From positions 4,021 to 68,020 of the forward strand of contig DATFYE010000027.1 of the NCBI GenBank assembly GCA_035315185.1: DNA of 64,000 bases, given 5' to 3'. Origin of the DNA: Syntrophorhabdales bacterium. Its GTDB lineage: Bacteria > Desulfobacterota > Syntrophorhabdia > Syntrophorhabdales > WCHB1-27. Below, in pieces: positions 8,474 to 54,903 of this stretch; position 1 is the first letter of the stretch, and each line of letters begins with the position of its first letter. A program made the translations under genes and the position numbers. The notes under the pieces are model-generated. The model saw only the letters and a program-made list of their open reading frames with translations. It made no database searches and was not told the DNA's origin.

Positions 8474-8647
8474 GATTATTACCTCCTCTCAGTAGACACC
8501 GCATGACGGTATAGTATAATAAGTATCAATAATCAGACTATGGGGATGTGTCAAGGATATACGAATTTTAGATGGCAAATGCGCGGGGAAACCAGGGCAT
8601 AGATCGCACGATGCAATTCTGTCTGCGAGCAGCATGCACGGGGCGAC

Positions 8648-8663
8648 TGGCATGAGAATTGCT
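8648..8663 (+). promoter_or_regulatory. Sigma-54 (-24/-12) promoter candidate upstream of the DsbA-like gene
   Basis: TGGCAT-GAGAA-TTGCT has exact GG-N10-GC spacing. It lies ~125 nt upstream of the start codon. Confidence 0.5.
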
Positions 8664-10915: not shown

Positions 10916-12289
10916 ATGGCACAGCTGATGCCCCTAACTGATAGTGGCGCGGACGAAGACGCCCTTCAACCGATTGAAAGCGCTCCTCGAGCTGGCTTGC
11001 TGGACTGGATGCTGCGGGGCGGGATTCTGCTCGGCCTTGCATTCATCGTTTATGCAACCGTTGTCGGGCGCCTGTTTCATCCCCTGCTGCGCGCCGCCGG
11101 GACCGAATCCTGGGCTAGGGTCATAATACGCCCCAGCCTGCTCTGGGCCATGATGGGCTCCTTGCTTCTGGTGTTTCGGACAGTGCTCTGGTTCCTGTAT
11201 CGACCCTTCGCATCGGCTCGTTTAGAAGATGCGCCGTCGATGACCGTCATCATTCCCGCATACAACGAAGGTGCAATGGTAAGGAAATCAATCGACTCGG
11301 TTGTGTCGGCACGTTACCCGCATGATCGGTTGGAGATTCTTGCGGTCGATGATGGAAGCACAGACGACACGTGGGATTATATCCGGGGAGCCACCAGCCA
11401 GCACCCCGGCTTAGTCACCGCGGTTCGATTTCGACAAAACCGTGGTAAGCGAGCGGCCCTCGAAGCCGGCTTTCGGAGGGCACGGGGAAAGATCGTCGTG
11501 ACGATCGACTCGGACAGCGTCATTGAACCAGGGACTCTGCTTGCCATGGCGGGTCCTTTTCGGGACTCCAGGATAGGTGCAGTTGCCGGCAAGGTGGTTG
11601 TCTACAACCGCTCTCAGGGTCTGATTCCGAAGATGCTGCAGGTGCGCTTCATATTGTCCTTTGATTTTCTGCGTGCCATACAGTCGGGTTACCGCACGGT
11701 TTACTGTTGTCCGGGAGCGCTCTCCGGATATCGCGTCTCAGTTGTTCGACAGGTGCTGGATGCCTGGGTCGATCAGACATTCATGCACACCCCATGCACT
11801 TACGGTGAAGACCGGGCCCTGACAAACTTTATTCTGGAACAAGGATTTGATGCCGTCTACCAGCGCTCTGCTGTTGTCCACACCATCGTTCCCTGGACCT
11901 ACCAGAAGCTGTGCAGGATGTATCTACGCTGGGATAGAAGCTACGTGCGTGAGGAGATACGCTTCGCGCGGATCGTTTGGAAGAGGCCTTTCAAGGCCTG
12001 CCTGATTGCCTTTTTCGACAAACTGATAACGAACCTTCGCTTCCCCGTCGCTTACGCGAGCCTTCTTCTGCTGGTGATGCATTCCATACAGGACCCGGCC
12101 AGCATCATCCGGCTATTCTTTGCAATCGGCCTGGTGTCATCTTTGAATATGCTTTACTACCTGCACAGCGAGCGATCATGGGATTTTCTGTACGGGATCT
12201 TTTACGCGTTCTTCTCTTTCTTTACCCTGTTCTGGATATTTCCTTATGCAGCCGCAACTGTTCGGTCTCGCGCCTGGATGACGCGTTAA
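10916..12289 (+). CDS. Membrane-bound processive family-2 glycosyltransferase
   Basis: 457 aa. VIIPAYNEG, DDGSTDDT, TIDSDS, GEDRALT and LRWDRS motifs, flanked by N- and C-terminal TM helices. Confidence 0.8.
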   Translation: MAQLMPLTDSGADEDALQPIESAPRAGLLDWMLRGGILLGLAFIVYATVVGRLFHPLLRAAGTESWARVIIRPSLLWAMMGSLLLVFRTVLWFLYRPFASARLEDAPSMTVIIPAYNEGAMVRKSIDSVVSARYPHDRLEILAVDDGSTDDTWDYIRGATSQHPGLVTAVRFRQNRGKRAALEAGFRRARGKIVVTIDSDSVIEPGTLLAMAGPFRDSRIGAVAGKVVVYNRSQGLIPKMLQVRFILSFDFLRAIQSGYRTVYCCPGALSGYRVSVVRQVLDAWVDQTFMHTPCTYGEDRALTNFILEQGFDAVYQRSAVVHTIVPWTYQKLCRMYLRWDRSYVREEIRFARIVWKRPFKACLIAFFDKLITNLRFPVAYASLLLLVMHSIQDPASIIRLFFAIGLVSSLNMLYYLHSERSWDFLYGIFYAFFSFFTLFWIFPYAAATVRSRAWMTR

Positions 12290-12393
12290 CAGGCGGGGCC
12301 CTGTTGATGCCTCGGATTGCAACTCCTTGTTTTGGGCCCTGTAATCAATACGAAGGCTCCACGAGGTCTGCAGATCAGACGAAGGGGGTACCT

Positions 12394-13896
12394 ATGAATC
12401 GTATAGCACTGACGCTTTCAGCTGTCGTACTGTTTCTTCTTTGCATCCCTGGAGTTTATGCAGAGGAAAAAGACAAGGCCTCTTCTTCCGCGCCTCTGAG
12501 CGAAGGGACAAAAGCCTGTCTCGACTGCCACAAGGACCTTCACCCAGGCCTTGTGCGGGACTGGCTTGCAAGCAGACATGCGCAGGTCGTTCCCGGTGTG
12601 GCCATAAAAAAGGCTGAGATGGAAAGGAGGATATCAGCGAAGTCGATTCCTGAGGCGCTACAAAGTGTGGCTGTCGGATGCTACGAGTGCCATACTTTGA
12701 ATCCTGCAGCACATAAGGACAATTTCGAGCATGCTGGTTACAAGATCAACGTTGTCGTCTCTCCCAACGACTGCAGAACGTGCCATTCCATTGAGGCGGA
12801 GCAGTACAGCGAGAGTACAAAGGCCTACGCGTTGGCCAATCTTGACAATAATCCCGTTTTCAAGACCCTTGTCGAGACTATTGATGGAAGCAAGGGGCTT
12901 AAGAACAAGAAGTTAGTCACTTCAAAACCATCGGACACCACCAAAAACGATACGTGCTACGCGTGCCACGGTACTGAGGTCGTCGTGAAGGGTTTCAAAA
13001 CGGTCTCGACGGACGTTGGCGACATGCAATTCCCGGAACTTCTCAACTGGCCGAATCAAGGTGTGGGAAGGATAAATCCGGATGGAAGCTTCGGGGCGTG
13101 CACGTCCTGTCACCCGAGGCACAGGTTCGCAATCAGCGTTGCACGAAAGCCATACACATGTTCTCAGTGCCATGTCGAACCCGATGTCCCGGCTTGGAAC
13201 GTCTATCGCGAAAGTAAACATGGTAACATCTTCTTCTCCGTCGAACGGGAGTGGGCTTTCGAGAACGTGCCCTGGGTCCCGGGCAGAGACTTTACTGCGC
13301 CCACCTGTGCCACCTGTCACAATAGTCTCCTCTCCACCGCCGATGGGACAACCATCGCCGAGAGAAATCACAATTTCGGATCAAGGCCATGGGCCCGCAT
13401 CTTTGGCCTCATCTATGCTCATCCACAGCCAAAAAGCGGTAAGACGTATCTCATCAAGAACAAGGACGGACTGCCACTGCCGACCACCTTCGCCGGAGAG
13501 CTGGCCTCCGATTATCTGATCGACAAGGAGGAGCAGATCAAGCGACTGGGCCGGATGAAGAGGATATGCCAGTCCTGTCACGCGAGCGGCTTCACCGACG
13601 GCCACTTCACGAAGTTCGCCGCTTCCATAGAAGAGGCTGACCAGATGGTAAAGGCGGCGACTCTTCTCCTGCAAAGCGCCTGGGACGCCGGGCTGGCCGA
13701 CAAATCGAACCCGTTTGATGAAGCAATCGAACAGAAATGGGTCAAACAGTGGCTCTTTTATGCAAACTCTGTCCGGTTTGGCTCGGCTATGATGGGGCCT
13801 GGCTACACTACTTTCGAACACGGCTGGTGGGATTTAACAAATAACCTTGCGGAAATGACTGACCTCATCAAACTGGAGAAGGGGAAGGGCAAATAG
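12394..13896 (+). CDS. Secreted octaheme c-type cytochrome, hydroxylamine-oxidoreductase (HAO)-like family
   Basis: Eight CxxCH motifs (CLDCH, CYECH, CRTCH, CYACH, CTSCH, CSQCH, CATCH, CQSCH). Signal peptide MNRIALTLSAVVLFLLCIPGVYA. RBS GAAGGGGG. The ORF-track start at 11977 is an artefactual extension into the GT2 gene. Confidence 0.8.
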   Translation: MNRIALTLSAVVLFLLCIPGVYAEEKDKASSSAPLSEGTKACLDCHKDLHPGLVRDWLASRHAQVVPGVAIKKAEMERRISAKSIPEALQSVAVGCYECHTLNPAAHKDNFEHAGYKINVVVSPNDCRTCHSIEAEQYSESTKAYALANLDNNPVFKTLVETIDGSKGLKNKKLVTSKPSDTTKNDTCYACHGTEVVVKGFKTVSTDVGDMQFPELLNWPNQGVGRINPDGSFGACTSCHPRHRFAISVARKPYTCSQCHVEPDVPAWNVYRESKHGNIFFSVEREWAFENVPWVPGRDFTAPTCATCHNSLLSTADGTTIAERNHNFGSRPWARIFGLIYAHPQPKSGKTYLIKNKDGLPLPTTFAGELASDYLIDKEEQIKRLGRMKRICQSCHASGFTDGHFTKFAASIEEADQMVKAATLLLQSAWDAGLADKSNPFDEAIEQKWVKQWLFYANSVRFGSAMMGPGYTTFEHGWWDLTNNLAEMTDLIKLEKGKGK

Positions 13897-25225: not shown

Positions 25226-25825
25226 CTACTGCTTTTTCCCCTTCTCCCGCACGAACTTCACGTCACTCTTTGCCCCCCACCGCTTGAAGAGCTTCCCGTC
25301 GATAGAAAAAAGGTCGAGGACCTTGCCAATGGTCTGGTCGATCAAGTTGTCGATCGTCTTAGGCATGTGGTAAAAGGCGGGGGCTGGCGGCATGATGACT
25401 CCCCCTATACGCGTGACCTTTGTCATGAGTTCCAGATGACCTTCGTGGAGCGGTGTCTCGCGCACCACGAGCACGAGCCTTCTCCGCTCCTTCAGGGTTA
25501 CGTCCGCTGCCCTGATCAGAAGATTGTAGTTAAACGAATTGGCGACCGCAGAGAGTGTTTTAATTGAGCAGGGTATGACGACCATGCCGTCGGTTTTGTA
25601 TGAACCACTGGCGATGGCCGCTCCGATGTCTTCCACGTCATAAACCGTGTGCGCCAATGCTTCAAGATCAGCCGGAGCATACTCTGTTTCGATGAGTAGA
25701 TTCTTGATCGCGGACTGAGTCACAACGAGGTGCGTTTCCACACTGCATGCGGCCAAAGCCTTCAACATCCGGACGCCGTAGATGACCCCCGTTGCGCCCG
25801 ATATGCCCACTATGATTCTTGTCAA
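25226..25825 (-). CDS. ubiX: Flavin prenyltransferase UbiX (prFMN synthase)
   Basis: 199 aa. The N-terminus RIIVGISGATGVIYGVRMLKAL and overall UbiX/Pad1 pattern fit. It overlaps the upstream UbiD gene by 4 nt. Confidence 0.9.
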   Translation of the reverse strand: MTRIIVGISGATGVIYGVRMLKALAACSVETHLVVTQSAIKNLLIETEYAPADLEALAHTVYDVEDIGAAIASGSYKTDGMVVIPCSIKTLSAVANSFNYNLLIRAADVTLKERRRLVLVVRETPLHEGHLELMTKVTRIGGVIMPPAPAFYHMPKTIDNLIDQTIGKVLDLFSIDGKLFKRWGAKSDVKFVREKGKKQ

Positions 25826-27153
25826 CAGACACCTCCGACGGATTTAAGAATTCGTTCAACGTTCTTACGGCTTCCGGCGGCAACACAGGCCTTCTCCTCG
25901 AACGTCTTCCCCTGCGTCGTCGCATCAATTCCCATCTTGGCTACCCCAAGACCGTGCTCGGCCTGAGGGTCGATAGCTTGCGCGTGCAGGTCAGGTACGA
26001 TCAGAATGTCCCTGTCGGCGAGGCACCTGGTAACCAGAGCCCATTCTACATCCCTGAGATTGTGAAGGTCAACGTCTTCATCCACAATAACTGCTTTCTT
26101 TATCGTCTGAAAGGCGAGTAGTGAGAGCACCAGATTACGTATTCTCGATCTGTGAACCGGCTTTACGGAAAGCACGACTGAGGATCCGAAGGTTTTTTGC
26201 ACGAATGCAATATCGACGATGAATGGGAAGAGCTTTTTCACCGTTTCCTCTATGTGAGCCCGGCTGACGAAGGTGAGATACGTATCCCCTTCGAGGCTTG
26301 TCGGCAAGAGAGCATGATACATCGGCGACGGCTGGTAGGAGAGCCGATTCACCACCATGGTAGGGCTTTCCTTGTTTGTCATGTAGTAGCCGCTGATTTC
26401 ACCAAGAGGCCCGTCCTGTCTCACATCCGTGGGGTCGACATAGCCTTCAAGGTAAATCTCCGCACCTGCCGGCGCGTCGATTGGAGAATCGAAAGATTCG
26501 ATCACCCTGATACCTTTTCCTTTTAGGCCGCCGGCCACTTCAAGCTTATCTGTACCTGGCTGCGCCTTTAGCGCCATCGATAGAAAGAGAATAGGATCGA
26601 CGCCCACCGCCACGGTAACAGGCATCCGCTCCCCTTTGGCCTTGTGCTTCTTGTAAATATCGACCAACGGCGGATTGATGATCGCTATACCTATGCGATC
26701 CTTGCCCCGGTACTCCATCCTGTGGACGCCTCTGCCCACAACGCCCGTATCCGGATCACGGGCCGCGACAATACTTGTGGTTATGAAGGGAGCCGAATCC
26801 TTCTCATAGTGTTTCAGTATCGGTAGAAGCTCCAGGAGGTCTCGTCCTTTAACACTCACGGTTTCCAGTTTTTTTTCGACCCGCACCTTTTTGGCCCTTT
26901 TTTTGAGGCTTTCAAGAAAGAACTGATACGGGTTATCCGTGTCGAAGAGAAGGCGAAAGATCTCGTGCGACGGGACGAGGTTCGCAACAAGGGAGCAGGT
27001 GTATCCCTTGAGGTTCTTGAAGAGCAGTACTTTCTTTGTGTCGGAGAGTCTCTCGATCAATTCGGGAATGTCTTCCCGGGTGACCTGATCCTGGATTTCA
27101 AGGAGCAGGCCACGCTTCTTCACAAAAGTAATGTAATCGCGCAGAGAGTCCAT
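25822..27153 (-). CDS. UbiD-family (prFMN-dependent) carboxylase subunit, phenylphosphate-carboxylase alpha/beta-like
   Basis: 443 aa UbiD fold. It sits in a UbiD-small-UbiD arrangement followed by ubiX. Confidence 0.8.
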   Translation of the reverse strand: MDSLRDYITFVKKRGLLLEIQDQVTREDIPELIERLSDTKKVLLFKNLKGYTCSLVANLVPSHEIFRLLFDTDNPYQFFLESLKKRAKKVRVEKKLETVSVKGRDLLELLPILKHYEKDSAPFITTSIVAARDPDTGVVGRGVHRMEYRGKDRIGIAIINPPLVDIYKKHKAKGERMPVTVAVGVDPILFLSMALKAQPGTDKLEVAGGLKGKGIRVIESFDSPIDAPAGAEIYLEGYVDPTDVRQDGPLGEISGYYMTNKESPTMVVNRLSYQPSPMYHALLPTSLEGDTYLTFVSRAHIEETVKKLFPFIVDIAFVQKTFGSSVVLSVKPVHRSRIRNLVLSLLAFQTIKKAVIVDEDVDLHNLRDVEWALVTRCLADRDILIVPDLHAQAIDPQAEHGLGVAKMGIDATTQGKTFEEKACVAAGSRKNVERILKSVGGVC

Positions 27154-27420: not shown

Positions 27421-28866
27421 CTAATCTTTGAAGCCGTACGTGCGCCACTTACTGAGCACGCGCTCTTGTATATCTTTGGGATAAGTGCTGTTGAAGGAGA
27501 CCGGGATGGGCAGGTCCGACGCAGGCCATTCCGGCGGGAAGAGACAGTCGAAAACAACCTTGGGGGTCCTGCTGAATTTTCGCTCCTCCGGGCTACAGAA
27601 GGGATTGAGTGGCGTGCCGAAACCGTGCTCTGTGACCCGGATGCCTCTCACCGGGTGGCAGCGTGTGCAGAGCGCGTGAATAATCGCATCCTTATTGTAG
27701 ATATCGGTCTTGTCATCCACTACGAGCACCATATGAAACCATGCGCCAAATTTGCTGCCGAACACGAGCTGGCTGATCTGGGTGGCGATGTTCGCGTAGA
27801 TCGGCTTTACGCCTACAACCACGAGATGATGCGTTGACTCCGGCAGCATATAGACCCCTGAGATGGGCAGTCCCTGGTCTCTCAGCATCCGGTCCATTTC
27901 AAGCGCCATCGAGAAAGAGCGGAGCAACTGTCCTTCGTCCGTTGGCACACCCATGTTGGAAACAGCCATGATCGGTTTCTTGCGCATAGTTACGGCCCTG
28001 ACACGGTAGACCGTCCGTTTATCGCGCGGGCTTGTCCTGTAACCCGTGTACTCGCCGAAGGGCGCTTCCTCTATGGTGAGGTTGGGCACAATTATACCCT
28101 CGATAATAATCTCTGCATGGGCCGGCACATACAGGTCACAGGTTTCACATTTCACGACCTCAACCGGCTCACCCATCAATTGCCCCGTAAACTCGGACTC
28201 CGCGATAGGGCTTGGAGCAGAGCTCGCTATGGCTGAAAGAGGATCAGGACTTATCACCGTGGCAAAAGGCATGGGAAGGTTGCGCGGAGCGTACTTGCCG
28301 TAAAGCATCTTACCCATGTCGGAGAAGGGGAGTACGGGGCCGACCATGGTTTTCTCATCAAAAAGCATCTGCCGGTACATACCCCAGTTGACGAAGTCCG
28401 TGTCATAATCTTTGGCCACGACAAAGTGCCAGGTACAGATATAGCGCCCCCCGTCACCGTCGTGGACCATGGGCGCCGGAAGATTGAGAAGGTTCGCGTC
28501 ATCGCCCGTGAGGATAATCTCTTTGCAGGGCGCATCCTTCCTGTCGATGATGCGAGGCGCGATCGGCGCTCCACGCGTTCTCTTCAAGTATTCTCCTTGT
28601 ATCTCGGGAATCGACGCCTCGGGAGGCAGGCCGAAACAGATGGCGAGCCGTCGGTACGTGGCTATCGGGGCACCGAAGGCTTCAAAGTCAGGATAGTCTT
28701 TTATTTTTTTGAAGTAAGCGGCAGGTGATTTGCGTTCACACATCCTGCGCACGATGGCGCCCATCTCAAGGTCCCAGTCCACCTCCTCGTTTACGACGAC
28801 AGCATCTCCCGTTTTCAGGAGCGCTTCAATGTAAGTCCTGTTGTCCTTGTAGTATTTATAAGCCAT
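27421..28866 (-). CDS. UbiD-family carboxylase subunit, phenylphosphate-carboxylase alpha/beta-like
   Basis: 481 aa UbiD fold. RBS AGGAGG. Confidence 0.8.
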   Translation of the reverse strand: MAYKYYKDNRTYIEALLKTGDAVVVNEEVDWDLEMGAIVRRMCERKSPAAYFKKIKDYPDFEAFGAPIATYRRLAICFGLPPEASIPEIQGEYLKRTRGAPIAPRIIDRKDAPCKEIILTGDDANLLNLPAPMVHDGDGGRYICTWHFVVAKDYDTDFVNWGMYRQMLFDEKTMVGPVLPFSDMGKMLYGKYAPRNLPMPFATVISPDPLSAIASSAPSPIAESEFTGQLMGEPVEVVKCETCDLYVPAHAEIIIEGIIVPNLTIEEAPFGEYTGYRTSPRDKRTVYRVRAVTMRKKPIMAVSNMGVPTDEGQLLRSFSMALEMDRMLRDQGLPISGVYMLPESTHHLVVVGVKPIYANIATQISQLVFGSKFGAWFHMVLVVDDKTDIYNKDAIIHALCTRCHPVRGIRVTEHGFGTPLNPFCSPEERKFSRTPKVVFDCLFPPEWPASDLPIPVSFNSTYPKDIQERVLSKWRTYGFKD

Positions 28867-30255: not shown

Positions 30256-31674
30256 TCAATCGATTCCATATTCAGACCATCTGGCTTTGACCTTGGCAAG
30301 CATGCCTTCTGAAAGCTTGATCTCCGTGGGCTTAACTTTCCATTCGAAAGGTATGGTTGCATCCAGGATGATGCGTGAGGTGATAAACTTGTTCTCGTCA
30401 GCTCCAATGGCTGGATCGAGCGGAGTTGACCTGCCCCTGTTAATGATCTGAGTGCCTCTAAGAGGATTGTAGCGCGTACCGAGTGCCCACCATACTCTCG
30501 GAAGATCATCTGCATCGATATCATCATCCACGATGATGACGCATTTGATTCCGTACGTGCCGGTGTTGCTTGCGATGACCGCGGCACCCACCTGGTCCGC
30601 ATGGCCGGGATACATCTGCTGCACGGAAACGACTACTATGAAACGTCCTGAGCCTTCCGGCAGCGTATAGACCGACTTGATGCCGGGGATTTCCATCTTG
30701 ACCAGGTCAGTCCATAAGGAGGCGTTACGCGTAAAGGCGTAGAGCATATGCTGGTCGCCCACAGGCCTGCCAACGCTTGTCTCCCAGAGAATGGGGTTGT
30801 TTCTAAAGTAGACGCGCTTGACGTCAAGGGCGGGCTTGGGGATAGGTTTTATGAGTTCTTCCGTGTAGTAACCTGTGTACTCGCCGAAGGGCCCCTCGTT
30901 CCTCAGTTGTTGAGGATCGACCTCCCCTTCGAGGACGATCTCTGCGGCAGCCGGGATAGGAAGCCCTGTGAGCTGGCCTTTTACGACATCAACAGGTTCG
31001 CCGCGCAGAGAGCTTACCACATCGTATCCGCTCTTTGCTTTGACCGTTGCAGCGCTGGCAAAGATATGCAGCGGATCGCCGCCTATGATCGCGCAGGCAG
31101 GCATCTTCTTGCCCGCCTTAGCGTATTTCTTCATGATCCTGTCGCCTGTCTTCCCTTTTAGTATCTGGACGCCTATGGTCTTGTTGTCGAGGATGCCCAT
31201 GCGGTAGGTACCGAGGTTTATGTTGCCGGTCTCAGGGTCCTGCAATACCATGAATACTGCGGTGCCGAAATAGCGCCCTCCATCCAGCTCATAAAACTTG
31301 GGCGAAGGAAAGGCAAACGTGTCCACCTTGTCACCCTCAACGACGTTCTCGAAAATGGGACCGTCTTTCACTTCCTTTGCCCGGATCACTTCCTTGACCG
31401 CGACACTGACCCACTCCTTGGTAAGCTCCACCATGGAGAGCTTCGGACTCTTTCCAAGGATCATTGCCAGCCTCTGCGTGGTGCCGAATGCACCGGTCAG
31501 AACGGGGCTCTTATATCCCTTCACGTTTTCGAACAACAGTGCCGGGCCGCTCTTCTCTTCAACGACCTTTGCGACATGAGAGATTTCCAGATCCCAGTCT
31601 ACTTCCGCTCTTACCCTTTTTAGCTGCCCCTCTTTTTCGCACAAAGATATGAAGTCTCTAAGATCCATACGCAC
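30256..31674 (-). CDS. UbiD-family decarboxylase/carboxylase, third paralog (first gene of the operon)
   Basis: 472 aa UbiD fold. RBS GGGGG. Confidence 0.8.
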   Translation of the reverse strand: MRMDLRDFISLCEKEGQLKRVRAEVDWDLEISHVAKVVEEKSGPALLFENVKGYKSPVLTGAFGTTQRLAMILGKSPKLSMVELTKEWVSVAVKEVIRAKEVKDGPIFENVVEGDKVDTFAFPSPKFYELDGGRYFGTAVFMVLQDPETGNINLGTYRMGILDNKTIGVQILKGKTGDRIMKKYAKAGKKMPACAIIGGDPLHIFASAATVKAKSGYDVVSSLRGEPVDVVKGQLTGLPIPAAAEIVLEGEVDPQQLRNEGPFGEYTGYYTEELIKPIPKPALDVKRVYFRNNPILWETSVGRPVGDQHMLYAFTRNASLWTDLVKMEIPGIKSVYTLPEGSGRFIVVVSVQQMYPGHADQVGAAVIASNTGTYGIKCVIIVDDDIDADDLPRVWWALGTRYNPLRGTQIINRGRSTPLDPAIGADENKFITSRIILDATIPFEWKVKPTEIKLSEGMLAKVKARWSEYGID

Positions 31675-46043: not shown

Positions 46044-47561
46044 ATGAAAGAAATCCCGCTTAAGGTTGATACAGCAGTTATCGGAGGCGGCATTACGGGT
46101 CTCTACACGTGCTTACAGCTGCGGAAACAGAAGGGCCCTGGCCACAGAATGGCGCTGTTCGAGGCCTCAAACCGCCTCGGGGGCCGGATTGAAACGGTCG
46201 AGATGGACGGCTTTTTAGCAGAATACGGGCCCATGCGATTTGAGAAAAGAGCGCAGCCGCTTCTCATGGATCTGATTCATGAGTTAGGCCTCGAAACAAG
46301 CCATTTTTCTCCCTACATGGCAGCAACCGATCCGGAGTCGCTGTACAGTCTTGGGGAGGATGATCTATGGTCTCGGGGAGGTGATTCCGGAATTCAGCTC
46401 AACGCCCTGGAGCTGCTTTCCCTCGGGATCCTGCGGGTGCTGCAGGCCAGTGGTGGCGACCTCAACAACCCCAGGGATCCTCGCCACTGGGAATGGTGGG
46501 CGGGACTGGGCGAAAGCTTCTATCATGAACTCAGAACTGCGGCAGCCTTTCGTGGTGAACCGTTGCACAACGCCGGCTTCTGGAATGTCCTGAGTGCTGT
46601 CTTAAGCCATCGGGCGCTGACCAAGATTATCAATTACGGGACCTTCTACCATTCGATCCATCAGAATCCGAGCGCGGCCGAGTGTATCATCTTTTGGTTA
46701 CGAGGTCTCCATCCCCATGAGACTATGGCGGGAATCAAAGAGGGCGCCGAGGCTTTGATCACAAAGCTGGCAGAGAGGCTCTTGTCTCTTCAGCCTGAAC
46801 CGATTCCTCTCTACAGGAACCATAAACTGGTGGCGATTGAAGAGCACGAGGGAGACCACCTGCGCCTTGCCTTGTCTGCGCCAGGGGGACGCAGCGTCAC
46901 GGTGTTTGCACGGCATGTCGTGCTTGCCCTTCCTCGGAGCCCGTTGAGAAAACTCGAGTCGTTCTTCCCCGAGACTATCGTCCGTCTGGTCGATTCGGTC
47001 ATTCCCATTCCGCTTTTTAAATGTTTCTTTGTCACGAAAGAACCGTGGTGGAACCAACATACATTGCCTCAAACCGGGGCCTCATGCGTGCCTGCCCGGG
47101 AACTTCATTATTACTATCGAGAAGAAGGAGCCGAGAAACGAGGCATGGTCATGGTTTATGGAGATAGTCCGTCCAAGCACTACTGGCAATCCTTTGTCGC
47201 AGAGGATCCGCACGCGCAGGTGGAGCTGAACAAGGATAAGCGATTGCGCGAGTATTATGTGAAATATCTGAGCCTGGCTCCCCATGTTGCCGACCGATGC
47301 GAACGTGAAGCCCGTGCCGACACGCTCACCTGTTTTGGTATCCGCGACTTCAGCCGTGAGCCCTTTGAAGCGGGTGTTCATCTTTGGAAACCCAGGGTGC
47401 AGATTTACGAGGCAATGAAAAGGCTGTCGGCGTTTCCGCTTTCCCGGGCCGGTCACACGCATAACGGCCTTCATATCTGCGGCGAGGCCTATTCCGATTT
47501 TCAAGGATTCATTGAGGGAGGGCTCAGGACAGCCCTTGCCGTGGTGCGGCAGATCACGTAA
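46044..47561 (+). CDS. FAD-dependent amine-oxidase-family oxidoreductase
   Basis: Dinucleotide-binding VIGGGITGLYTC...FEASNRLGGR motif. RBS GAGGAG upstream of ATG 46044. Confidence 0.72.
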   Translation: MKEIPLKVDTAVIGGGITGLYTCLQLRKQKGPGHRMALFEASNRLGGRIETVEMDGFLAEYGPMRFEKRAQPLLMDLIHELGLETSHFSPYMAATDPESLYSLGEDDLWSRGGDSGIQLNALELLSLGILRVLQASGGDLNNPRDPRHWEWWAGLGESFYHELRTAAAFRGEPLHNAGFWNVLSAVLSHRALTKIINYGTFYHSIHQNPSAAECIIFWLRGLHPHETMAGIKEGAEALITKLAERLLSLQPEPIPLYRNHKLVAIEEHEGDHLRLALSAPGGRSVTVFARHVVLALPRSPLRKLESFFPETIVRLVDSVIPIPLFKCFFVTKEPWWNQHTLPQTGASCVPARELHYYYREEGAEKRGMVMVYGDSPSKHYWQSFVAEDPHAQVELNKDKRLREYYVKYLSLAPHVADRCEREARADTLTCFGIRDFSREPFEAGVHLWKPRVQIYEAMKRLSAFPLSRAGHTHNGLHICGEAYSDFQGFIEGGLRTALAVVRQIT

Positions 47562-47670
47562 CAGAAATCACCGGCCAGGCATGCGCCTCAGGCTCTTGAA
47601 CTGTTGACAATGACAGAACAAGGCCCAATACTAAAAAAGATGCGAAGTAGAAGACTATAGGGGGTGACAA

Positions 47671-47913
47671 ATGGATAGCGACAAAAAGGTTCTGGTTTAC
47701 TCAACGCCTACCTGACCGCACTGCAAGAGGGCGAAAAAGTTCCTCGAGGAGAATGGTATCTCCTTTCAAGATATAGACGTTGCGGCAGACAAAGCAGCCC
47801 GGGAAGAGATGGCACGAAAAGCAGGCCAGATAGTGGTTCCCGTTTTTGACATCGATGGAACAATCATAGTGGGCTACGTTGAGAGCCAGTTGAAGGAAGC
47901 TCTAGGGCTCTAG
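47671..47913 (+). CDS. Glutaredoxin/NrdH-like redoxin, 80 aa, with in-frame TGA (candidate selenocysteine) at the first active-site position (U-P-H-C)
   Basis: It is not in the ORF track because both halves are shorter than 60 aa. My translation is MDSDKKVLVYSTPT-U-PHCKRAKKFLEENGISFQDIDVAADKAAREEMARKAGQIVVPVFDIDGTIIVGYVESQLKEALGL. RBS GGGGGTG. TGA is at 47713-15. A TrxR-like gene follows 24 nt downstream. Confidence 0.7.
47747..47764 (+). promoter_or_regulatory. Candidate SECIS apical hairpin
   Basis: AGGAGA-ATGGTA-TCTCCT starts 32 nt after the UGA and has a GGU-containing loop. Confidence 0.3.
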
Positions 47914-47937
47914 TCCCTTAGGCTTGCGGAGTCTCAC

Positions 47938-48849
47938 ATGCATGATGTGGTCATCATTGGCGCCGGTCCTGCCGGCATGACAGCAGCGGTCTACTGCGCG
48001 CGGAAGAAGCTCAGCACGCTCCTCGTCAGCAAGGACGTTGGCGGCCAAACGCTCTGGACAAACGACATAGAAAATTACATGGGGTACCAGTTCATCGAAG
48101 GGCCGGAACTCGTTGAAAAGTTCGAGCAACAGGTACGCCAATTTCCCATCGACGTGAAGATAGAAGAGGACGTGGTCGGCCTGACCAAGGTGGATGGTGG
48201 TTTCGAAGTGCTTACCGCGAGTGGCTGGACTTACCGGGCAAAGGCGGCGATTATAGCCAGTGGCAAACGGCCCCGGTCGCTCGGCGTCCCTGGGGAAGAA
48301 CGCTTGCGGGGGCGCGGTGTGACGTATTGTGCTACCTGCGACGGCCCCTTGTACGAGGGACTAAAGGTGGCAGTGATCGGGGGTGGTAATTCAGCCGCGG
48401 AAGCGGTCTTGGATATGCTGAAGATTGCGGCGCATGTGTACATGGTCTCCTTAACACCGTTGACCTGCGATCAGCTGCTCGTCGAGAGGTTCAAGGAAAA
48501 CCCGACGCTCACTGTTTACGCGGAACATGTAACACAAGAGGTACTGGGAGACCCCTCGGTGTCAGGTATCCGCATCAAAGACCTCAAGTCTGGCGAAGAG
48601 AGGATTTTGGAAGTCAGGGGGGTCTTTGTTGAGATCGGGCTGGTCCCGAATTCAGATTTTGTAAAGGAACTGGTCAAGCTGAACGGGCCTGGCGAGATAG
48701 AGGTTAGTTGTGCCGGTGAGACCGCAGTTCCGGGCCTGTTCGCAGCCGGCGACGTCACGAATGTTCCCGAGAAACAGATTGTTGTGGCCGCCGGCGAGGG
48801 AGCAAAGGCGGCCCTTCAGGCCCACCGTTTTCTTCAAAGGCTTACATGA
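47938..48849 (+). CDS. Thioredoxin-reductase-like FAD/NAD(P)H disulfide oxidoreductase
   Basis: 303 aa. VVIIGAGPAGMTAA, redox-active CATCDG, and a second Rossmann motif VIGGGNSAAE. Confidence 0.85.
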   Translation: MHDVVIIGAGPAGMTAAVYCARKKLSTLLVSKDVGGQTLWTNDIENYMGYQFIEGPELVEKFEQQVRQFPIDVKIEEDVVGLTKVDGGFEVLTASGWTYRAKAAIIASGKRPRSLGVPGEERLRGRGVTYCATCDGPLYEGLKVAVIGGGNSAAEAVLDMLKIAAHVYMVSLTPLTCDQLLVERFKENPTLTVYAEHVTQEVLGDPSVSGIRIKDLKSGEERILEVRGVFVEIGLVPNSDFVKELVKLNGPGEIEVSCAGETAVPGLFAAGDVTNVPEKQIVVAAGEGAKAALQAHRFLQRLT

Positions 48850-49178
48850 CCTACTCTTACTAAGCCTTTTAGGGGAACTGCGAGAGGCGCCCTCTGAAAG
48901 CCCATTTTCCGCGCAACTGGGCAGGTCAAAAATGCGTATTCGTAACAACTTGAAAATAAAGGGAATCGTTAGTTGCTCTTTTTTTGACAATCGACCATAT
49001 CGGAATATCTGGTTTCCCGGATACTCGTTGAAACCACTAGGTTTTTAAGATTGCCACATCACAGGGCAAACCGAAGAAAGTCTCCTGATATTAACATGTT
49101 ATCGGTATCTTTCGACAAATTTTGTACAAGTTTTCCACAGAAATTGTGGAAAACTCTCCTAACTGGCCGACTTCTCTA

Positions 49179-49694
49179 ATGTATCCGGAGATACTGACCG
49201 TAGGTCATTCGACACGCGCCTTGGAGGTATTCATCAGCCTCCTGAAAGAAAATGGTGCTGAGTGGATAGTCGATGTACGGAGCATCCCTCGCTCTCGACA
49301 TAACCCGCAATTCAACCGGGATACGTTACCCGAGAGCCTGTCTGGAGCAGACATAGGTTACTCGCATATGGCGGGGCTCGGGGGATTCCGGAAGCCGAGA
49401 GCCGATTCTCCGAATACAGGATGGAGAAACGCAGGTTTTCGCGGCTACGCTGACTACATGCAGACCGCTCAGTTTCAGCAGAGTCTTGAAGCTCTCCTCA
49501 GCCTGACAAAAGAGAGAAGGGTGGCCCTGATGTGCGCGGAGGCCGTTCCATGGCGGTGCCATCGTTCTCTGATCTCAGATGCGCTTGTCGTGCGTGCCGC
49601 TAGAGTGACCCATATACTTGGTCCGGGAGAGAGCATTGCTCACGTTCTTACGGCCGGGGCGAAAGTGAAAGACGGATTGATTACGTATCCTTAG
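49179..49694 (+). CDS. DUF488 family protein
   Basis: ILTVGHSTR...VDVRSIPRSRHNPQFN...CAEAVPWRCHRSLISD motifs. Confidence 0.72.
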   Translation: MYPEILTVGHSTRALEVFISLLKENGAEWIVDVRSIPRSRHNPQFNRDTLPESLSGADIGYSHMAGLGGFRKPRADSPNTGWRNAGFRGYADYMQTAQFQQSLEALLSLTKERRVALMCAEAVPWRCHRSLISDALVVRAARVTHILGPGESIAHVLTAGAKVKDGLITYP

Positions 49695-50812: not shown

Positions 50813-51835
50813 TTAATGTGATTTAAGGTAGTCAAGACAGAACTTGAGAACCTCGTCCCCGGGGAATCCCTTCGCCTTCACGCCCTTCGCGTACTCGTCG
50901 AGGAGGGGCCTTACCTGAGCGGCCCAGCGTGCGTCTTCCTCCTTTGAGAGGGCTATGATTTTGCTGCCCCTTACCTGCACCACCTCGATAGCCTCTTTGT
51001 CGATCTCATCCCAGGCCTTACCCTCTTTCTCGATCCACTCGTCGTTGACCTTTTCGATCACCTTCTGATCGGCGGGTGAGATGGAGTTCCACTTTGCCTT
51101 GTTCATGACCACAAAGTGCGCAGAGGTATAAGCCGCACCGTAATCCAGAGTGTGGCTGCTGACCACTTCAGCCAGCTTCCAGCCTTTCATCGCCTCGAAT
51201 GGGCAAAGGATTGCATCGGCGACACCCTTCGAGAGTGCATCGTAAGCCTCGCCCATCGGCATGCCGACGGGTGCGCCGCCAAGAGCCTGGACGATGTTTG
51301 CTGCGACACCCTGAGACCGGATCTTGAGACCCTTAACGTCTTCGAGCTTAGCGACGGGCCTCTTACTGTGGAGTAAGCCGGGGCCATGGGAGTAAAAGTA
51401 AAGGACTCGTGTCTCGTCCCATTCCTTCGGCTTGAACTCGTTGTAAAATGCATTGGTCATGTGTGTTGCTTGGGTAGCGCTTTTGTATCCGAGCGGCAGA
51501 CCGACCACCTCGGTAAGCGGGAACTTTCCTCTCGTGTACGCCGCGTCGGCAAGCCCTATATCGGCGATACCCTTCACCACGCTATCATATGTCTGCACGG
51601 CGGGGGTGAGAGTGTTATTCGGAAAGACCGTAACTTTGATTCGTCCATTGGTCCTTTTTTCAACTTCTTTACACCAGTCATTGACCACCTGACTCTGCCG
51701 GTGCGGAGCGGGGAACATTGTCGAATAGCGGAGAGTGATCGTTTTTTCCTCCGCTGCGCCACTCTGACAAGGGATAAGACAGACAAAAAAAGCGAAGACA
51801 AGAAAACCGGTACCAATAACGGAAAACTTTTTCAT
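50813..51835 (-). CDS. TRAP transporter solute-binding protein, DctP family (orphan)
   Basis: About 340 aa from ATG 51835 (RBS AAGGAGG). Signal peptide. The ORF-track start at 51964 extends into the repeat element. Confidence 0.82.
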   Translation of the reverse strand: MKKFSVIGTGFLVFAFFVCLIPCQSGAAEEKTITLRYSTMFPAPHRQSQVVNDWCKEVEKRTNGRIKVTVFPNNTLTPAVQTYDSVVKGIADIGLADAAYTRGKFPLTEVVGLPLGYKSATQATHMTNAFYNEFKPKEWDETRVLYFYSHGPGLLHSKRPVAKLEDVKGLKIRSQGVAANIVQALGGAPVGMPMGEAYDALSKGVADAILCPFEAMKGWKLAEVVSSHTLDYGAAYTSAHFVVMNKAKWNSISPADQKVIEKVNDEWIEKEGKAWDEIDKEAIEVVQVRGSKIIALSKEEDARWAAQVRPLLDEYAKGVKAKGFPGDEVLKFCLDYLKSH

Positions 51836-51856
51836 AACCGCCTCCTTAGTCTTGAG

Positions 51857-52101
51857 TAGTATTGTCCGAATCCGCGCTGGCTTCAACCATTTCCTTCGCT
51901 CGCTGCTGCTCCGTCTCTCACCCGTTCTAAGTTCTCCTTCCGCTTGCCTGTGGAACTCGCGCACGCCTGCTATCGATAGCAGGCTTACCGCTCAGACAGT
52001 CCTCGTCATGCGCCCCACACTGCGCACCGCTCCCTCCGAACATAAGACGGGTCCCGAGAGACTCCCGCAATGCTTCGCTCAGGAAAGGTTGAGCCGCGCT
52101 C
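51857..52101. mobile_element. Copy 2 of the structured core repeat (left arm present, right arm missing)
   Basis: About 95% identical to copy 3 across 51857-52101. The homology ends at ...GAGCCGCGCTC. It lies 22 nt upstream of the dctP start codon. Confidence 0.6.
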
Positions 52102-52188: not shown

Positions 52189-53583
52189 CTAGACCAGGTC
52201 CTCCGGCTTCGGAATATATTTTTTCAAATCAATCCGCTTCATCACATCCTCAGGCACAACCGCGACAGGAGGAAAATCCTTTCGGAAAGGCTTTGCTGTT
52301 GCGTCGATACCCACTTTTGTCACCACCGCCTCTTGCGCCGCAGACAGATCGAGGTCAGTCCCGAGCACACCCGGCAGAATCATCACATCCCTGTCAGCCT
52401 GGACCCTGGTGGCGAGCGCCCACGTTATTTGAGCTCCGTTATCGAGATCGATGTCAGAGTCGAAACAGATCACATACTTGAGGTACATATCGTTTGCAAA
52501 GGCGGCCAGGATGGCCTGCTTGGGCTGGCCCGCATGTTTTTTGTCGAGTTGAATAAAGCCGTACCACCATCCCGCTGCCGCTATAAACTTGAACTTCTTG
52601 ACGTCGGGCACAGCCTCTTTTAGTTTGCGGTTCATGAACGCATGCTGCGGGAGGCGCCCCATGAGCATGCCTTTGCTCGGCCAGGCACCCATGTCGTGCA
52701 CGATAGGGTTTTTCCTGTGCGTTATGGCGGTGATTTTTACAGGATGGCGCATGGCGACCTGGTGATACTTGGTGAAATCTCCCCATGGGCCCTCCTGCTC
52801 GCGGACGCCGGGAGGGATTACGCCCTCTATGATGATCTCAGCGCGCGCAGGGACGAGCACATCACTGGTCTCACACGTCACCACCTCCAGCGGCTCGCCC
52901 ATCAAGCTGCCCGCAATATCAAACTCTGAAGGCGGATGGCCGACACGACTCTGGAAGGCGGTCGCCCACGCGGGGTGAAGCCCTACGGCAAACGCGATCG
53001 GGAGAGGCTCGTTCCGCTCCATGTATTCATTATAGATGTACCAGAAATGGCGGCCGGGCGTGATGTGCGTGACACCGAGATGCGGTTTCTTTACCATAAA
53101 ACGGTAATGGGAACAGTGAGGCGCATTTATTTTTCTGTCCATTACGATGCCCACGGCCCGCGTCAAATAGGGCGCTTCGCCCTTGTGATGTGTGATGAAA
53201 GGAAAGCGGGTCATGTCAGCCTTTTTTCCGGTCAGGACAACATCCCTGCAAGGAGCATCTTTTTTATTGATCTCTTTTGCAGGGTATTTGTTCAGCCTGA
53301 TTGCCTCCTCTTCCTTTTCCGCATAATAGTCCTCCACTTTTTCAGGAGGGATACCAAGGGCCAGGCCGTATTTGGTCGCGCTCGTCTCAGTATTACAGAC
53401 GACAGGCGTGCTGTACCCTTTCACATTCTCAAAGAGCACCATGGGATATTTTCCCATCAGGTCCAGTTTCTTGATTATTGCGGAGATCTCATATTTGGGA
53501 TCAACCTCTCGCGTGACCCGGACATACTCCTGCGGCAGCTTCTTTTCGCACTCCGCCATGAACGTTCTCAAATCTTTCGGCAT
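52189..53583 (-). CDS. UbiD-family decarboxylase, fourth paralog
   Basis: About 464 aa from ATG 53583 (RBS GGAGGG). UbiD fold. Confidence 0.82.
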   Translation of the reverse strand: MPKDLRTFMAECEKKLPQEYVRVTREVDPKYEISAIIKKLDLMGKYPMVLFENVKGYSTPVVCNTETSATKYGLALGIPPEKVEDYYAEKEEEAIRLNKYPAKEINKKDAPCRDVVLTGKKADMTRFPFITHHKGEAPYLTRAVGIVMDRKINAPHCSHYRFMVKKPHLGVTHITPGRHFWYIYNEYMERNEPLPIAFAVGLHPAWATAFQSRVGHPPSEFDIAGSLMGEPLEVVTCETSDVLVPARAEIIIEGVIPPGVREQEGPWGDFTKYHQVAMRHPVKITAITHRKNPIVHDMGAWPSKGMLMGRLPQHAFMNRKLKEAVPDVKKFKFIAAAGWWYGFIQLDKKHAGQPKQAILAAFANDMYLKYVICFDSDIDLDNGAQITWALATRVQADRDVMILPGVLGTDLDLSAAQEAVVTKVGIDATAKPFRKDFPPVAVVPEDVMKRIDLKKYIPKPEDLV

Positions 53584-53626
53584 CAAGCCCTCCTTTTTTT
53601 GTACAAGCCTCGCTCGCATCCTGCGA

Positions 53627-54607
53627 TTACTTCTTCCACGCGCCAATCTCTTTCAGATACTTTTCCGCTCCCGGATGAAAGGGAACGGGGGTAGCCTTTG
53701 TCATGTTCTCCAGCGTAAAGTCGCCTGGTGTCGAAGCATGGATCGCATAGTAGTCCTGCCGGTGTTCCCAGAGATTTTTCAGGAACCGGTAGACAAAATC
53801 CTCACTCACGTCAGCATGGGTGAAGATGCTGGTTGCAAATCCGTAAACGGGCGTATCCTGATCCATGCCTCTGTACGATTTTGCTTTGATGACCCTTTTG
53901 TAGTAATACGGATGTTCCGGCAGCACCTTGTTGAAAGCCTGTTCGTCGACGGGCACCACGCGGGCGGGCGTGAGCTGTGAGAGTTCCATGTACGACGGCA
54001 TCGGATAGGCTCCTCCGAGAAAGCCGCCGTCGAGGCTCCCGTTCTGTATCCCTTCAACCACCTCTTTGAACACGTAGTAGTAAGGTTTGAAATCGTTCTT
54101 TGTCACACCGTGCGCTTCAAAGAAGAGAAGGGCGCTCGTGGAAACCGTGCTGCCCGGGCCTCCGATCCCGATGCGCTTGCCTTTAGCATCCGCAAAAGAT
54201 TTGATAGGACCTTTAGCCGGCACGGCAAAATATTGGTCCGAACCATTGATGAAGCAGATTGCCCGAAGCGTGGAGAATGGTTTGCCCGCGTATTCGCCAA
54301 GACCTTTATATGCCCGGAAGCCGTCAGGAGTGCCGAAAAGGGCGAAGGCAGGCTTCTTACCGGCCTCCCTCTGCATCATGCGCCGGACCATCTCCATGGT
54401 GCCTGTCGCAGCTTCATGAACAAAGTTGGCATCCGGCATGTACTTGTTCGTCACAGCGGCCACGCCTGCACCGAGAATGTAGACAGTGCCACCCGAAGGC
54501 GGTGTGTACAGGGGCGCCAACTCCGCAGCTTGTATTGACGGATGACTGCACAAGAGTATCAGAGCCGCGAAGCCGAGAACAGATGCAATGAGTCTAACAT
54601 ATTTCAT
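53627..54607 (-). CDS. TAXI-family TRAP solute-binding protein
   Basis: About 326 aa from ATG 54607. Signal peptide. GGTVYILGAGVAAV and GIGGPGSTV motifs. Confidence 0.78.
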   Translation of the reverse strand: MKYVRLIASVLGFAALILLCSHPSIQAAELAPLYTPPSGGTVYILGAGVAAVTNKYMPDANFVHEAATGTMEMVRRMMQREAGKKPAFALFGTPDGFRAYKGLGEYAGKPFSTLRAICFINGSDQYFAVPAKGPIKSFADAKGKRIGIGGPGSTVSTSALLFFEAHGVTKNDFKPYYYVFKEVVEGIQNGSLDGGFLGGAYPMPSYMELSQLTPARVVPVDEQAFNKVLPEHPYYYKRVIKAKSYRGMDQDTPVYGFATSIFTHADVSEDFVYRFLKNLWEHRQDYYAIHASTPGDFTLENMTKATPVPFHPGAEKYLKEIGAWKK

Positions 54608-54631
54608 CCGCACCCCCTCTTCTGCGCATTA

Positions 54632-54903
54632 GTATTGTCAAAATCCGTGCTGGCTTCAACCATTTCCTTCGCTCGCTGGTGCTCCGTCTCTCACCCGTTC
54701 TAAGTTCTCCTTCCGCTTGCCTGTGGAACTCGCGCACGCCTGCTGTCGACAGCAGGCTTACCGCTCAGACAGTCCTCGGCATGCGCCTCACACTGCGCAC
54801 CGCTCCCTCCGAACATAAGACGGGTCCCGCGAGACTGCCGCAATGCTTCGCTCAGGAAAGGTTGAGCCGCGCTCCGCATTTCTCGTAAAACTTTTGACAA
54901 TAC
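54632..54903. mobile_element. Copy 3 of the core repeat: a MITE-like 272-bp element with perfect 12-bp TIRs and a 10-bp flanking direct duplication
   Basis: GTATTGTCAAAA (54632-43) pairs with TTTTGACAATAC (54892-903). The element is flanked by CTGCGCATTA at 54622-31 and 54904-13. It sits 25 nt upstream of the TAXI start codon. Confidence 0.7.

Follow-up and report, generated by a model that had tools for sequence, protein, structure and literature searches.

Does the in-frame TGA at codon 15 end the small gene at positions 47671-47913 of the DNA analysed here, or is it translated as selenocysteine (Sec)? The window, that is, the whole stretch analysed, comprises 64,000 nt of contig DATFYE010000027.1 of a Syntrophorhabdales bacterium. 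A previous sequence-only reading had proposed that the gene encodes an 80-amino-acid (aa) glutaredoxin-like protein with a U-P-H-C active site, paired with a reductase resembling thioredoxin reductase (TrxR). The results below indicate, with a probability of about 90%, that 47671-47913 is a genuine Sec-decoding redoxin gene which is functionally coupled to the adjoining reductase gene. The gene is a further member of a bacterial selenoprotein type already on record; it does not represent a new kind of system.

The in-frame TGA codon and the redoxin family

Translation from ATG 47671 through the TGA gave a readthrough product of 80 aa, MDSDKKVLVYSTPT-U-PHCKRAKKFLEENG...LGL, which ended at a TAG stop (47911-47913). 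The start codon, the ribosome-binding site GGGGGTG, the position of the TGA and the translation given by the sequence-only reading were all reproduced. The stretch around the active site was V-L-V-Y-S-T-P-T-U-P-H-C, with U in place of the first Cys and CCG-CAC-TGC (P-H-C) directly after the TGA. The GGGGGTG leader was the same in one related strain, and AGGAGG stood at the equivalent place in other relatives.

Profile searches with the U-to-C protein showed a full-length match to Pfam PF00462 (Glutaredoxin; 67.8 bits, cut-off 22.9, E = 9.7e-19, profile positions 1-60 of 60) and a marginal pass of NCBIfam TIGR02196 (YruB family; 88.9 bits, cut-off 88.55). The size of 80 aa and the [IV]-x-[ILV]-[YF]-[ST] strand before the active site fit the description of the YruB/Cp9 proteins (75-80 aa, C-P-[Y/W/...]-C-type; PMC3720550). 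A protein search returned 118 homologues, about 116 of which carried C-P-[HYW]-C at the TGA column; many were named 'glutaredoxin-like YruB-family protein' by their sources, and some 'NrdH-redoxin'. The glutaredoxin/NrdH-type architecture with the TGA exactly at the first redox Cys, which had been proposed from the letters, is borne out by these matches.

The redoxin shares with NrdH-redoxins the small glutaredoxin fold and, putatively, reduction by TrxR rather than by glutathione. It scored 47 bits with the NrdH-redoxin model TIGR02194 (cut-off 85.75) and also failed the Grx3 cut-off. It has U-P-H-C and no C-[VMI]-Q-C motif, and no nrd genes lie nearby. The GG motif of classical glutaredoxin glutathione sites appeared by eye to be missing. 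Weak similarity was found to the 'Uxx-star' families NF041212, NF041114, NF041211 and NF047338; the redoxin is not a member of them, because it scored below all of their cut-offs (best 56.5 versus 66).

Among solved structures the best match was C. oremlandii Grx1 (7C10/7C12/7C13; for 7c10, E = 5.6e-17, 43% identity, full length), which has the same size, the U/C-P-H-C site and the C-terminal LGL. Grx1 of C. (Alkaliphilus) oremlandii is a native selenoprotein with U/C-P-x-C, was solved in its CPHC form, and reduces the selenoprotein MsrA (PMC7642778). It differs from the window redoxin in its Firmicute origin, its role in MsrA recycling and its re-reduction by glutathione, whereas the window redoxin belongs to a Thermodesulfobacteriota-like anaerobe, is without an Msr neighbour, is genetically coupled to a TrxR-like reductase and has a selenocysteine insertion sequence (SECIS) candidate off the canonical type. 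Sec-containing glutaredoxins have been a recognised bacterial family since the mid-2000s, with members in Geobacter, Moorella and Alkaliphilus (PMC1794560; PMC13188914), and Grx (PF00462, UxxC) stands among the characterised, non-predicted selenoprotein entries of a 2026 review, which cites Kim et al. 2011 (PMC13188914).

The gene with its TGA was identical in two independent JGI assemblies (L002, L003). The TGA was also kept in Logan contigs of five DNA metagenomes from soil, wetland and sediment (X1-X5), four of which, from related strains, varied at the neighbouring synonymous sites 47706 and 47721. Altogether, the TGA was seen in at least 7 independent DNA datasets and in 4 of 5 metatranscriptomes. 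The DNA pattern Y-S-x-P-T-TGA-P-x-C-K had at least 120 matches in metagenome contigs and 92 in GTDB species genomes, with about 15 chance matches expected from a rough information-content estimate. Out of the 215 records processed (the pattern matches listed, the related locus L001 and the window), 207 were full-length homologues with U-P-[H/Y/W/F]-C, so there are at least 207 TGA-type homologues. The search for Cys- or Sec-aligned glutaredoxin homologues that had been suggested as a check therefore yielded both kinds.

Among the matches listed, the genomes with a TGA-type gene were almost all metagenome-assembled genomes (MAGs) of Thermodesulfobacteriota or 'delta proteobacterium' (Syntrophaceae, Syntrophorhabdales, Desulfobacterales), together with Dehalococcoidia; the same phyla are among the most selenoprotein-rich in BSepDB. 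The closest named relative among them was an uncultured delta proteobacterium MAG (L133, 87.5% aa identity). The Sec-type matches were divided into subfamilies A, B, C and D1, with the group 'other' beside them. Subfamily A (86 aa) was the commonest among the matches listed, subfamily C contains the window gene and has the motif U-P-H-C-K-R-x-x-x-F-L-E-E, and subfamily D1 comes from Dehalococcoidia and has UPWC.

A TGC or TGT Cys codon that had mutated to TGA would leave a pseudogene or null allele, with a stop after 14 residues and the rest decaying. Close Cys-type orthologues do stand one base away at this codon, such as L004 (TGC) and, in a comparison of two closely similar loci, L229 against the Sec-type L128. 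Nevertheless, dN/dS after the TGA was 0.07-0.23 between the window and subfamily-C members, and the lengths after U were uniform. This purifying selection excludes a pseudogene or a 14-residue product. The pseudogene is further opposed by the homologues in several divergent subfamilies that carry TGA in intact frames of uniform length, by the substitutions of relatives at third codon positions, by the persistence of the TGA in the DNA datasets while neighbouring sites vary, and by the Sec-associated, synonymously constrained hairpin after the TGA that is described below. The selection data effectively refute this explanation, which we hold to be extremely improbable.

Termination at the UGA might also be combined with a separate shorter protein from an internal start such as ATG 47809, and a mechanical listing of open reading frames (ORFs) does contain a 34-aa ORF at 47809-47913. 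However, the whole 80-aa frame matched the Glutaredoxin model end to end, the codons from the TGA to 47809 were constrained at both the protein and the RNA level, and the 34-aa C-terminal fragment is without the active site and half of the fold. Such an internal start is scarcely conceivable.

A further explanation has a standard amino acid inserted at the UGA, either Trp or Gly (genetic code 4 or 25) or a near-cognate Cys or Trp at a leaky stop. Near-cognate UGA decoding is known in other systems, and public collections list both the redoxin of the window (P0001) and a homologue with 66% identity (P0013) as T-W-P-H-C. The gene, which the sequence-only reading had called unannotated, was thus not strictly so, since the protein is on record in a mistranslated form. 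The DNA of both entries has TGA, though, and of the 67 long ORFs of the window, which tile 87% of the sequence under code 11, 33 end in TGA, the commonest ordinary stop. TGA is therefore not a general amino-acid codon in this organism, and the stored Trp is a gene-caller artefact (genetic code 4). In addition, no homologue had Trp at the nucleophile position of the CxxC redoxin (all had Cys), the RNA structure after the codon tracked TGA versus TGY, a second UxxC gene of the window had a consensus bacterial SECIS (bSECIS), and the closest characterised relative is a verified selenoprotein. Decoding as a standard amino acid is thus very unlikely.

The second UxxC gene (8786-9646, + strand) encodes an exported protein of 286 aa with a DsbA/Thioredoxin_4 fold, an in-frame TGA at 9212-9214 and the motif Y-D-D-Y-Q-U-P-Y-C. 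The protein had weak similarity, below the cut-off, to NF041057 (Rcas_1661 family seleno-lipoprotein). Judged from its sequence, this DsbA-like gene is a second selenoprotein candidate and supports Sec decoding in this genome. The other readthrough ORFs of the window were frame noise, and only the DsbA-like gene was credible. In the gap beside it, a small Cys-rich ORF (MKKGDVYYCKDCGIEITITKECVDCGKPSSACECGPCSFVCC...) at 8291-8653 (- strand) may encode a metal-binding mini-protein.

RNA structure downstream of the UGA codon

Two hairpins, H1 and H2, follow the UGA within the coding sequence. The 6-bp hairpin with a GGU loop that the sequence-only reading had placed at 47747-47764 exists and corresponds to H2, which with a G.U pair has 7 bp and extends over 47746-47765. 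H2 begins 31 nt after the last TGA base. Published criteria for bSECIS elements are a loop of 3-9 nt, a stem of 4-16 bp, a spacing of 16-37 nt, a minimum free energy (MFE) of -7.5 kcal/mol or lower, and a G in loop position 1-2 followed by G or U (PMC13188914). The loop length (6 nt, containing GGU), the stem (7 bp), the UGA-to-loop spacing (37 nt, at the limit) and the energy (-8.6 kcal/mol) of H2 were within these ranges. As in the bSECIS of the E. coli fdhF type, the stem-loop lies within the coding sequence just after the UGA, but the window redoxin has an extra conserved hairpin before H2.

Synonymous variation dropped just after the UGA in every subfamily. In the 19 unique subfamily-C genes, a block of suppressed synonymous variation (47725-47769) held both hairpins: Arg+5, although six-fold degenerate, was always AGG, Ser+16 was always TCC and Leu+10 was nearly invariant, while the flanks varied freely. 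The same block had 93% nucleotide identity with L001, compared with about 55% elsewhere, and metagenome contigs of many strains piled up and broke at 47742-47771.

Folding of nucleotides +13 to +60 gave -14.9 kcal/mol against -8.0 ± 2.6 kcal/mol in synonymous-codon shuffles (z = -2.7), and none of the 100 shuffles reached the observed value. These shuffles, which keep the protein and the codon usage, are the appropriate null for coding RNA and replaced dinucleotide shuffles; against the latter, the hairpin alone was no better (z = -0.9). For the subfamily, the mean z against synonymous shuffles was -2.3, and a control segment of the same gene showed no excess. The MFE fold also contained a long-range stem of CCUGACCGCA with UGCGGCAG enclosing both hairpins, which was rejected because the codons of its 3' arm (V-A-A) vary freely among relatives.

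The sister subfamilies A, B and other had textbook bSECIS elements with stems of 6-9 bp and, at 22-23 nt from the UGA, a loop of GUU, GUA or AGUU. In A and B, 80-89% of these were at or below -7.5 kcal/mol, compared with 2% of shuffles, and four or more distinct stem sequences occurred. Two hairpins likewise follow the UGA of the DsbA-like gene: GGGGC-UUGA-GCCCC, which starts at +15, and CUCCAGC-AGGU-GCUGGAG (7 bp, 34-nt spacing, -12.8 kcal/mol), which fits the bSECIS consensus fully.

Ten distinct orthologous Cys-type genes from nine distinct loci, several of which share the window's upstream cupin/HAD/amidohydrolase synteny, served for comparison. Cys-type paralogues within Sec-type loci were unsuitable as controls, as those available there were all distant, classical CPFC glutaredoxins with about 36% identity. 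At least 6 of the 7 pairs of H2 were formed in 19 of 19 Sec-type subfamily-C genes and in 3 of 10 Cys-type genes (Fisher p = 7.7e-5, phylogeny ignored), and the mean dG of H2 was -8.7 in the Sec type versus -4.8 in the Cys type (Mann-Whitney p = 9e-5, phylogeny likewise ignored). H1, by comparison, was common to subfamily D1 and is not Sec-specific, because most Cys-type orthologues keep its stem.

If Sec is inserted, the functional SECIS could be H1, with G27-U28 placed like the GUU loop of the sister subfamilies, or both hairpins as a composite. H1 occupies the place of the canonical SECIS of subfamilies A and B, both structures leave G27-U28 unpaired, and the Sec-type D1 genes have H1 and are without H2; the synonymous constraint spans both hairpins, and a first hairpin is present in the DsbA-like gene as well. 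H1 is weak (Table 1), however, and largely kept when the codon is Cys, whereas the stronger H2 tracks Sec and is similar to the hairpin of the DsbA-like gene that fits the consensus. A role of H1 or of a composite as the SECIS is therefore unlikely. H2 is the probable SelB-binding element, because it tracks Sec and because the DsbA-like gene has the same hairpin design.

The proposal that the TGA is read as Sec rather than as a stop is thus upheld by the recurrence of TGA-type homologues, purifying selection, the freezing of synonymous sites, the Sec-associated hairpin, the second UxxC gene and the use of TGA as a normal stop.

The adjoining reductase and the weighing of the evidence

The next gene encodes a 303-aa flavoprotein of the low-Mr TrxR/AhpF-C-terminal type. 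The sequence-only reading had placed a CATC-type disulfide reductase 24 nt downstream of the redoxin gene, and both the spacer and the CATC motif were found again (Table 1). No terminator-like site was present in 47450-49250. The reductase aligned end to end with the C-terminal FAD/NADH/CxxC module of AhpF (1fl2, E = 4e-71; positions 213-510 only), but it lacks the N-terminal double-thioredoxin domain of AhpF and scored 329 bits with TIGR03140 (cut-off 502.9). The free Sec-redoxin may take the role of this N-terminal domain in trans. Many low-Mr TrxRs (TrxB) also aligned, with 299.4 bits for TIGR01292 (cut-off 343.45). Overall, the greatest resemblance was to the NADH-using reductase module of AhpF. 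The NADPH 2'-phosphate motif HRRxxxR (PMC5627308) was not present in the reductase, where VSLTP-LTCDQ aligned with LEFAPEMKADQ of AhpF. The absence of this motif makes NADH likelier than NADPH, and NADH as the predicted electron donor is a tentative working guess.

A TrxR-like gene was the only neighbour conserved across subfamilies. It started within 200 nt downstream in 11 of 14 subfamily-C loci, 6 of 6 D1 loci, 17 of 31 B loci and 11 of 26 other Sec-type loci, and it was downstream in all nine distinct Cys-type loci. It was not found in subfamily A, and the reductant of subfamily A is probably different for this reason. In subfamily A loci (e.g., L046, L105 and L073), the protein has U-P-Y-C-K-M-A-K-E-F-L-S-Q and an extra C-terminal tail with Cys residues; the gene converges with uvrA and follows a DUF434/DUF5616 gene, and in some loci a CPFC glutaredoxin of the classical kind is encoded at a distance of a few hundred bases.

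Neighbours within 5 kb of the window gene were amine-oxidase-like, cupin, HAD, DUF488, TPR and DctP genes. Lineage-specific neighbours were rubrerythrin upstream in subfamily B, and Fe/Mn-SOD, a NifS-like gene (named from its sequence, with no Pfam run) and NifU downstream in D1. These neighbours suggest a link to oxidative-stress defence.

The conserved core was present in five metatranscriptomes. Four of these, X26-X29, came from soil (two studies) and had contigs across the codon with the TGA unchanged. In X28 and X29, one contig each (436 and 465 nt) ran from the 5' leader through the redoxin gene and the spacer into the reductase gene, and the X25 peat run also bridged the junction of the two genes. 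Substitutions in the RNA contigs relative to the window were mostly at third codon positions. Co-transcription, proposed earlier as a check, was accordingly seen in relatives, and the dedicated redoxin/reductase pair that the sequence-only reading had suggested is supported by the adjacency of the genes in most B, C and D1 relatives, by the nine Cys-type loci and by the RNA contigs that span both genes. The adjoining reductase is likely the physiological reductant of the redoxin.

A comparable arrangement is known in C. pasteurianum, in which Cp9 (YruB) is encoded between the NADH-dependent TrxR Cp34 and the peroxiredoxin Cp20 and shuttles electrons between both (PMC3720550). Cp9 and the window redoxin are alike in being small glutaredoxin-like proteins with a C-P-x-C-type site and an adjoining TrxR-like flavoprotein gene. 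However, Cp9 has Cys and not Sec, and the Clostridium gene lies between reductase and peroxiredoxin genes, whereas the order in the window is redoxin then reductase with no adjoining peroxiredoxin; the position next to Cp20 is an operon feature of Clostridium, not of the protein family.

A pathway can be proposed on this basis. The UGA at 47713 would be recoded during translation by the bacterial Sec pathway, in which SelB with Sec-tRNA(Sec) would dock on the stem-loop just downstream, most likely H2, and H1 would have an accessory role or none. Redoxin and reductase would be co-transcribed, and the CATC flavoprotein would draw electrons from a pyridine nucleotide and reduce the U15-C18 selenenylsulfide. 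The reduced selenolate would then reduce disulfides or sulfenic/selenenic acids in client proteins. Such clients might be a peroxiredoxin, by analogy with Cp9, or a methionine sulfoxide reductase, by analogy with C. oremlandii Grx1. The outcome would be a fast thiol-repair and oxidative-stress pathway in an anaerobic soil or peat bacterium of Thermodesulfobacteriota type.

Several observations weigh against a Sec-decoding redoxin gene coupled to its reductase, or against parts of it. No selA, selB, selC, selD or tRNA gene was found in the 64-kb window, of which only part of the ORFs was annotated. A contig of the peat metatranscriptome X25, from a relative about 96% identical, read TTA (Leu) at the codon with a k-mer depth of about 4, which may be an error or a rare allele. 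In the loop of H2 (AUGGUA) the first G is at position 3, with G at 3-4 and not at 1-2, and a strict bSECIS-consensus scan found no element in the window redoxin, subfamily C or D1. The hairpin that the sequence-only reading had taken as SECIS-like thus misses the published consensus by one criterion and lies at the distance limit. A subset of bSECIS elements fail the consensus model (PMC13188914), so the position of the loop G weakens the description as a canonical SECIS and not that as a selenoprotein. Rfam gave no match, either with gathering thresholds on the whole window or in a permissive E-value scan of 47600-47950. The association of the hairpin with Sec versus Cys takes no account of phylogeny and comes from a small Cys sample (10), and the core of H2 showed no double compensatory substitution, only one-sided changes that preserve the structure (G-C to G.U, A-U to G.U).

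On the side of the reductase, the protein was below both the TrxR and the AhpF equivalog cut-offs, and its electron donor cannot be read off the sequence because Ser stands at the position of the acidic residue of AhpF. No peroxiredoxin or Msr gene adjoined the redoxin in the window, and no peroxiredoxin was a conserved neighbour in relatives. The RNA contigs were built by an assembler from relatives with about 87-96% identity, and DNA may be present in metatranscriptomes.

Sec/Cys exchange, other features of the window and meaning of the locus

Comparison of closely related loci showed that Sec and Cys forms can be very similar. The Cys-type L229 and the Sec-type L128 were 98.5% identical over 2.7 kb of nucleotide sequence; a base error is possible in this comparison because L128, a long-read MAG, has a frameshift in the redoxin gene. 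The Cys-type L004, which has 86% aa identity to the window redoxin, was 89% identical in DNA to the Sec-type L133. Both Cys forms, L229 and L004, keep the hairpin that follows the codon. The three Cys-type genes that keep H2 were nearly identical to Sec-type sequences except at the codon, which suggests recent Sec/Cys switches with a remnant SECIS. A switch of this kind with a remnant SECIS has already been described (PMC1794560).

A bolder explanation is that a separate class of bSECIS is shared by the window subfamily and the DsbA-like gene, made up of two hairpins in tandem, with the SelB-binding GG(U) placed further into a 6-nt loop at 34-37 nt from the UGA. On this view, the active-site codon would also switch between Sec and Cys in near-conspecific genomes from soil and peat, with the hairpin kept. 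This is doubtful; if true, there would be a standing Sec/Cys polymorphism, possibly tracking selenium supply, and the TTA (Leu) allele would be a third state.

The coordinates of the features of the locus are collected in Table 1. The sigma-70-like site upstream of the gene had 10 of 12 matches, and shuffles of the region contained on average 0.8 such sites, which is the chance level.

Table 1. Positions of the redoxin gene, the reductase gene and their signals in the window.
Feature	Position	Strand	Detail and basis
Promoter-like match of sigma-70 type, TTGACA, 17-nt spacer, AATACT	47604-47632	+	weak; 39 nt upstream of ATG
Ribosome-binding site GGGGGTG	47660-47666	+	4-nt spacing to ATG 47671
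Redoxin gene, 80 aa, glutaredoxin fold (YruB/Cp9-type), active site U15-P-H-C18	47671-47913	+	homology, dN/dS, RNA contigs; TAG stop included
In-frame TGA, codon 15, predicted Sec (attacking redox residue)	47713-47715	+	aligned with Cys of homologues, recurrence
TGC, Cys18, resolving Cys of UxxC	47722-47724	+	the same in every homologue listed
Block of suppressed synonymous variation, codons +4 to +18 after U, holding both hairpins	47725-47769	+	19 unique subfamily-C genes
H1, GAGGG/UUCCUC, 5 bp, 9-nt loop (or 6 bp with bulged U)	47727-47745	+	dG -4.5 kcal/mol; begins 11 nt after UGA
H2, GAGGAGA-AUGGUA-UCUCCUU, 7 bp including G.U pair, loop 47753-47758	47746-47765	+	dG -8.6 kcal/mol
Intergenic spacer, 24 nt, ribosome-binding site GGAG at 47928-47931, no terminator	47914-47937	+	sequence; RNA contigs cross spacer
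Reductase gene, 303 aa, low-Mr TrxR/AhpF-C-terminal-type flavoprotein	47938-48849	+	motifs, profiles, synteny
FAD motif GAGPAG, residues 8-13	47959-47976	+	
Redox motif CATC, residues 131-134	48328-48339	+	
NAD(P)H motif GGGNSA, residues 148-153	48379-48396	+	

Elsewhere in the window, a direct repeat of 245 nt (96% identical) was found at 51857-52101 and 54630-54874. Each copy is just upstream, on the - strand, of a solute-binding-protein gene, one of the DctP family (50813-51964) and one of the NMT1_3 family (53627-54613). The minus-strand RNA of the repeat folded at -102.6 kcal/mol against -86.8 ± 4.3 kcal/mol in shuffles (z = -3.7) and had no Rfam match; the repeat could be a regulatory leader common to both genes, or else a small mobile element. 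Four paralogues of the UbiD family of prenylated-FMN decarboxylases were present at 25822-27153, 27421-28866, 30256-31674 and 52189-53646, all on the - strand, alongside TRAP transporter genes, a LarA-like gene and a 2-oxoacid:ferredoxin oxidoreductase, and this set suggests anaerobic aromatic-acid or carboxylate metabolism. A family-2 glycosyltransferase ORF (10916-12289, +) and a multi-haem cytochrome c ORF (11977-13896, +, TTG start) overlapped by 313 nt in different frames; the true start of the cytochrome is probably further downstream.

No description of a Sec-type YruB/TrxR operon was found in the literature, which is weak evidence of novelty. Because the Sec-containing glutaredoxin family, C. 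oremlandii Grx1 and the YruB/Cp9-TrxR pairing were already known, the locus adds incrementally to them. It contributes a Sec form of the Cp9-type redoxin/TrxR module that is abundant in environmental Thermodesulfobacteriota and Dehalococcoidia, together with a systematic mis-annotation, a SECIS in subfamily C that deviates from the consensus, and a very recent Sec/Cys exchange.

The Sec codon hides this redox gene from standard gene callers, and hundreds of homologues, found in soil, peat, wetland and sediment MAGs of Thermodesulfobacteriota and Dehalococcoidia, suffer from the same annotation error. The family, in which Sec- and Cys-type orthologues share one synteny and sister subfamilies have SECIS elements of canonical or non-canonical type, is also a compact natural data set for the study of SECIS evolution and Sec/Cys exchange and for better selenoprotein gene finders. 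With it, the thiol-repair toolkit of environmental anaerobes would gain a widespread, TrxR-coupled Sec version of the Cp9/YruB system.

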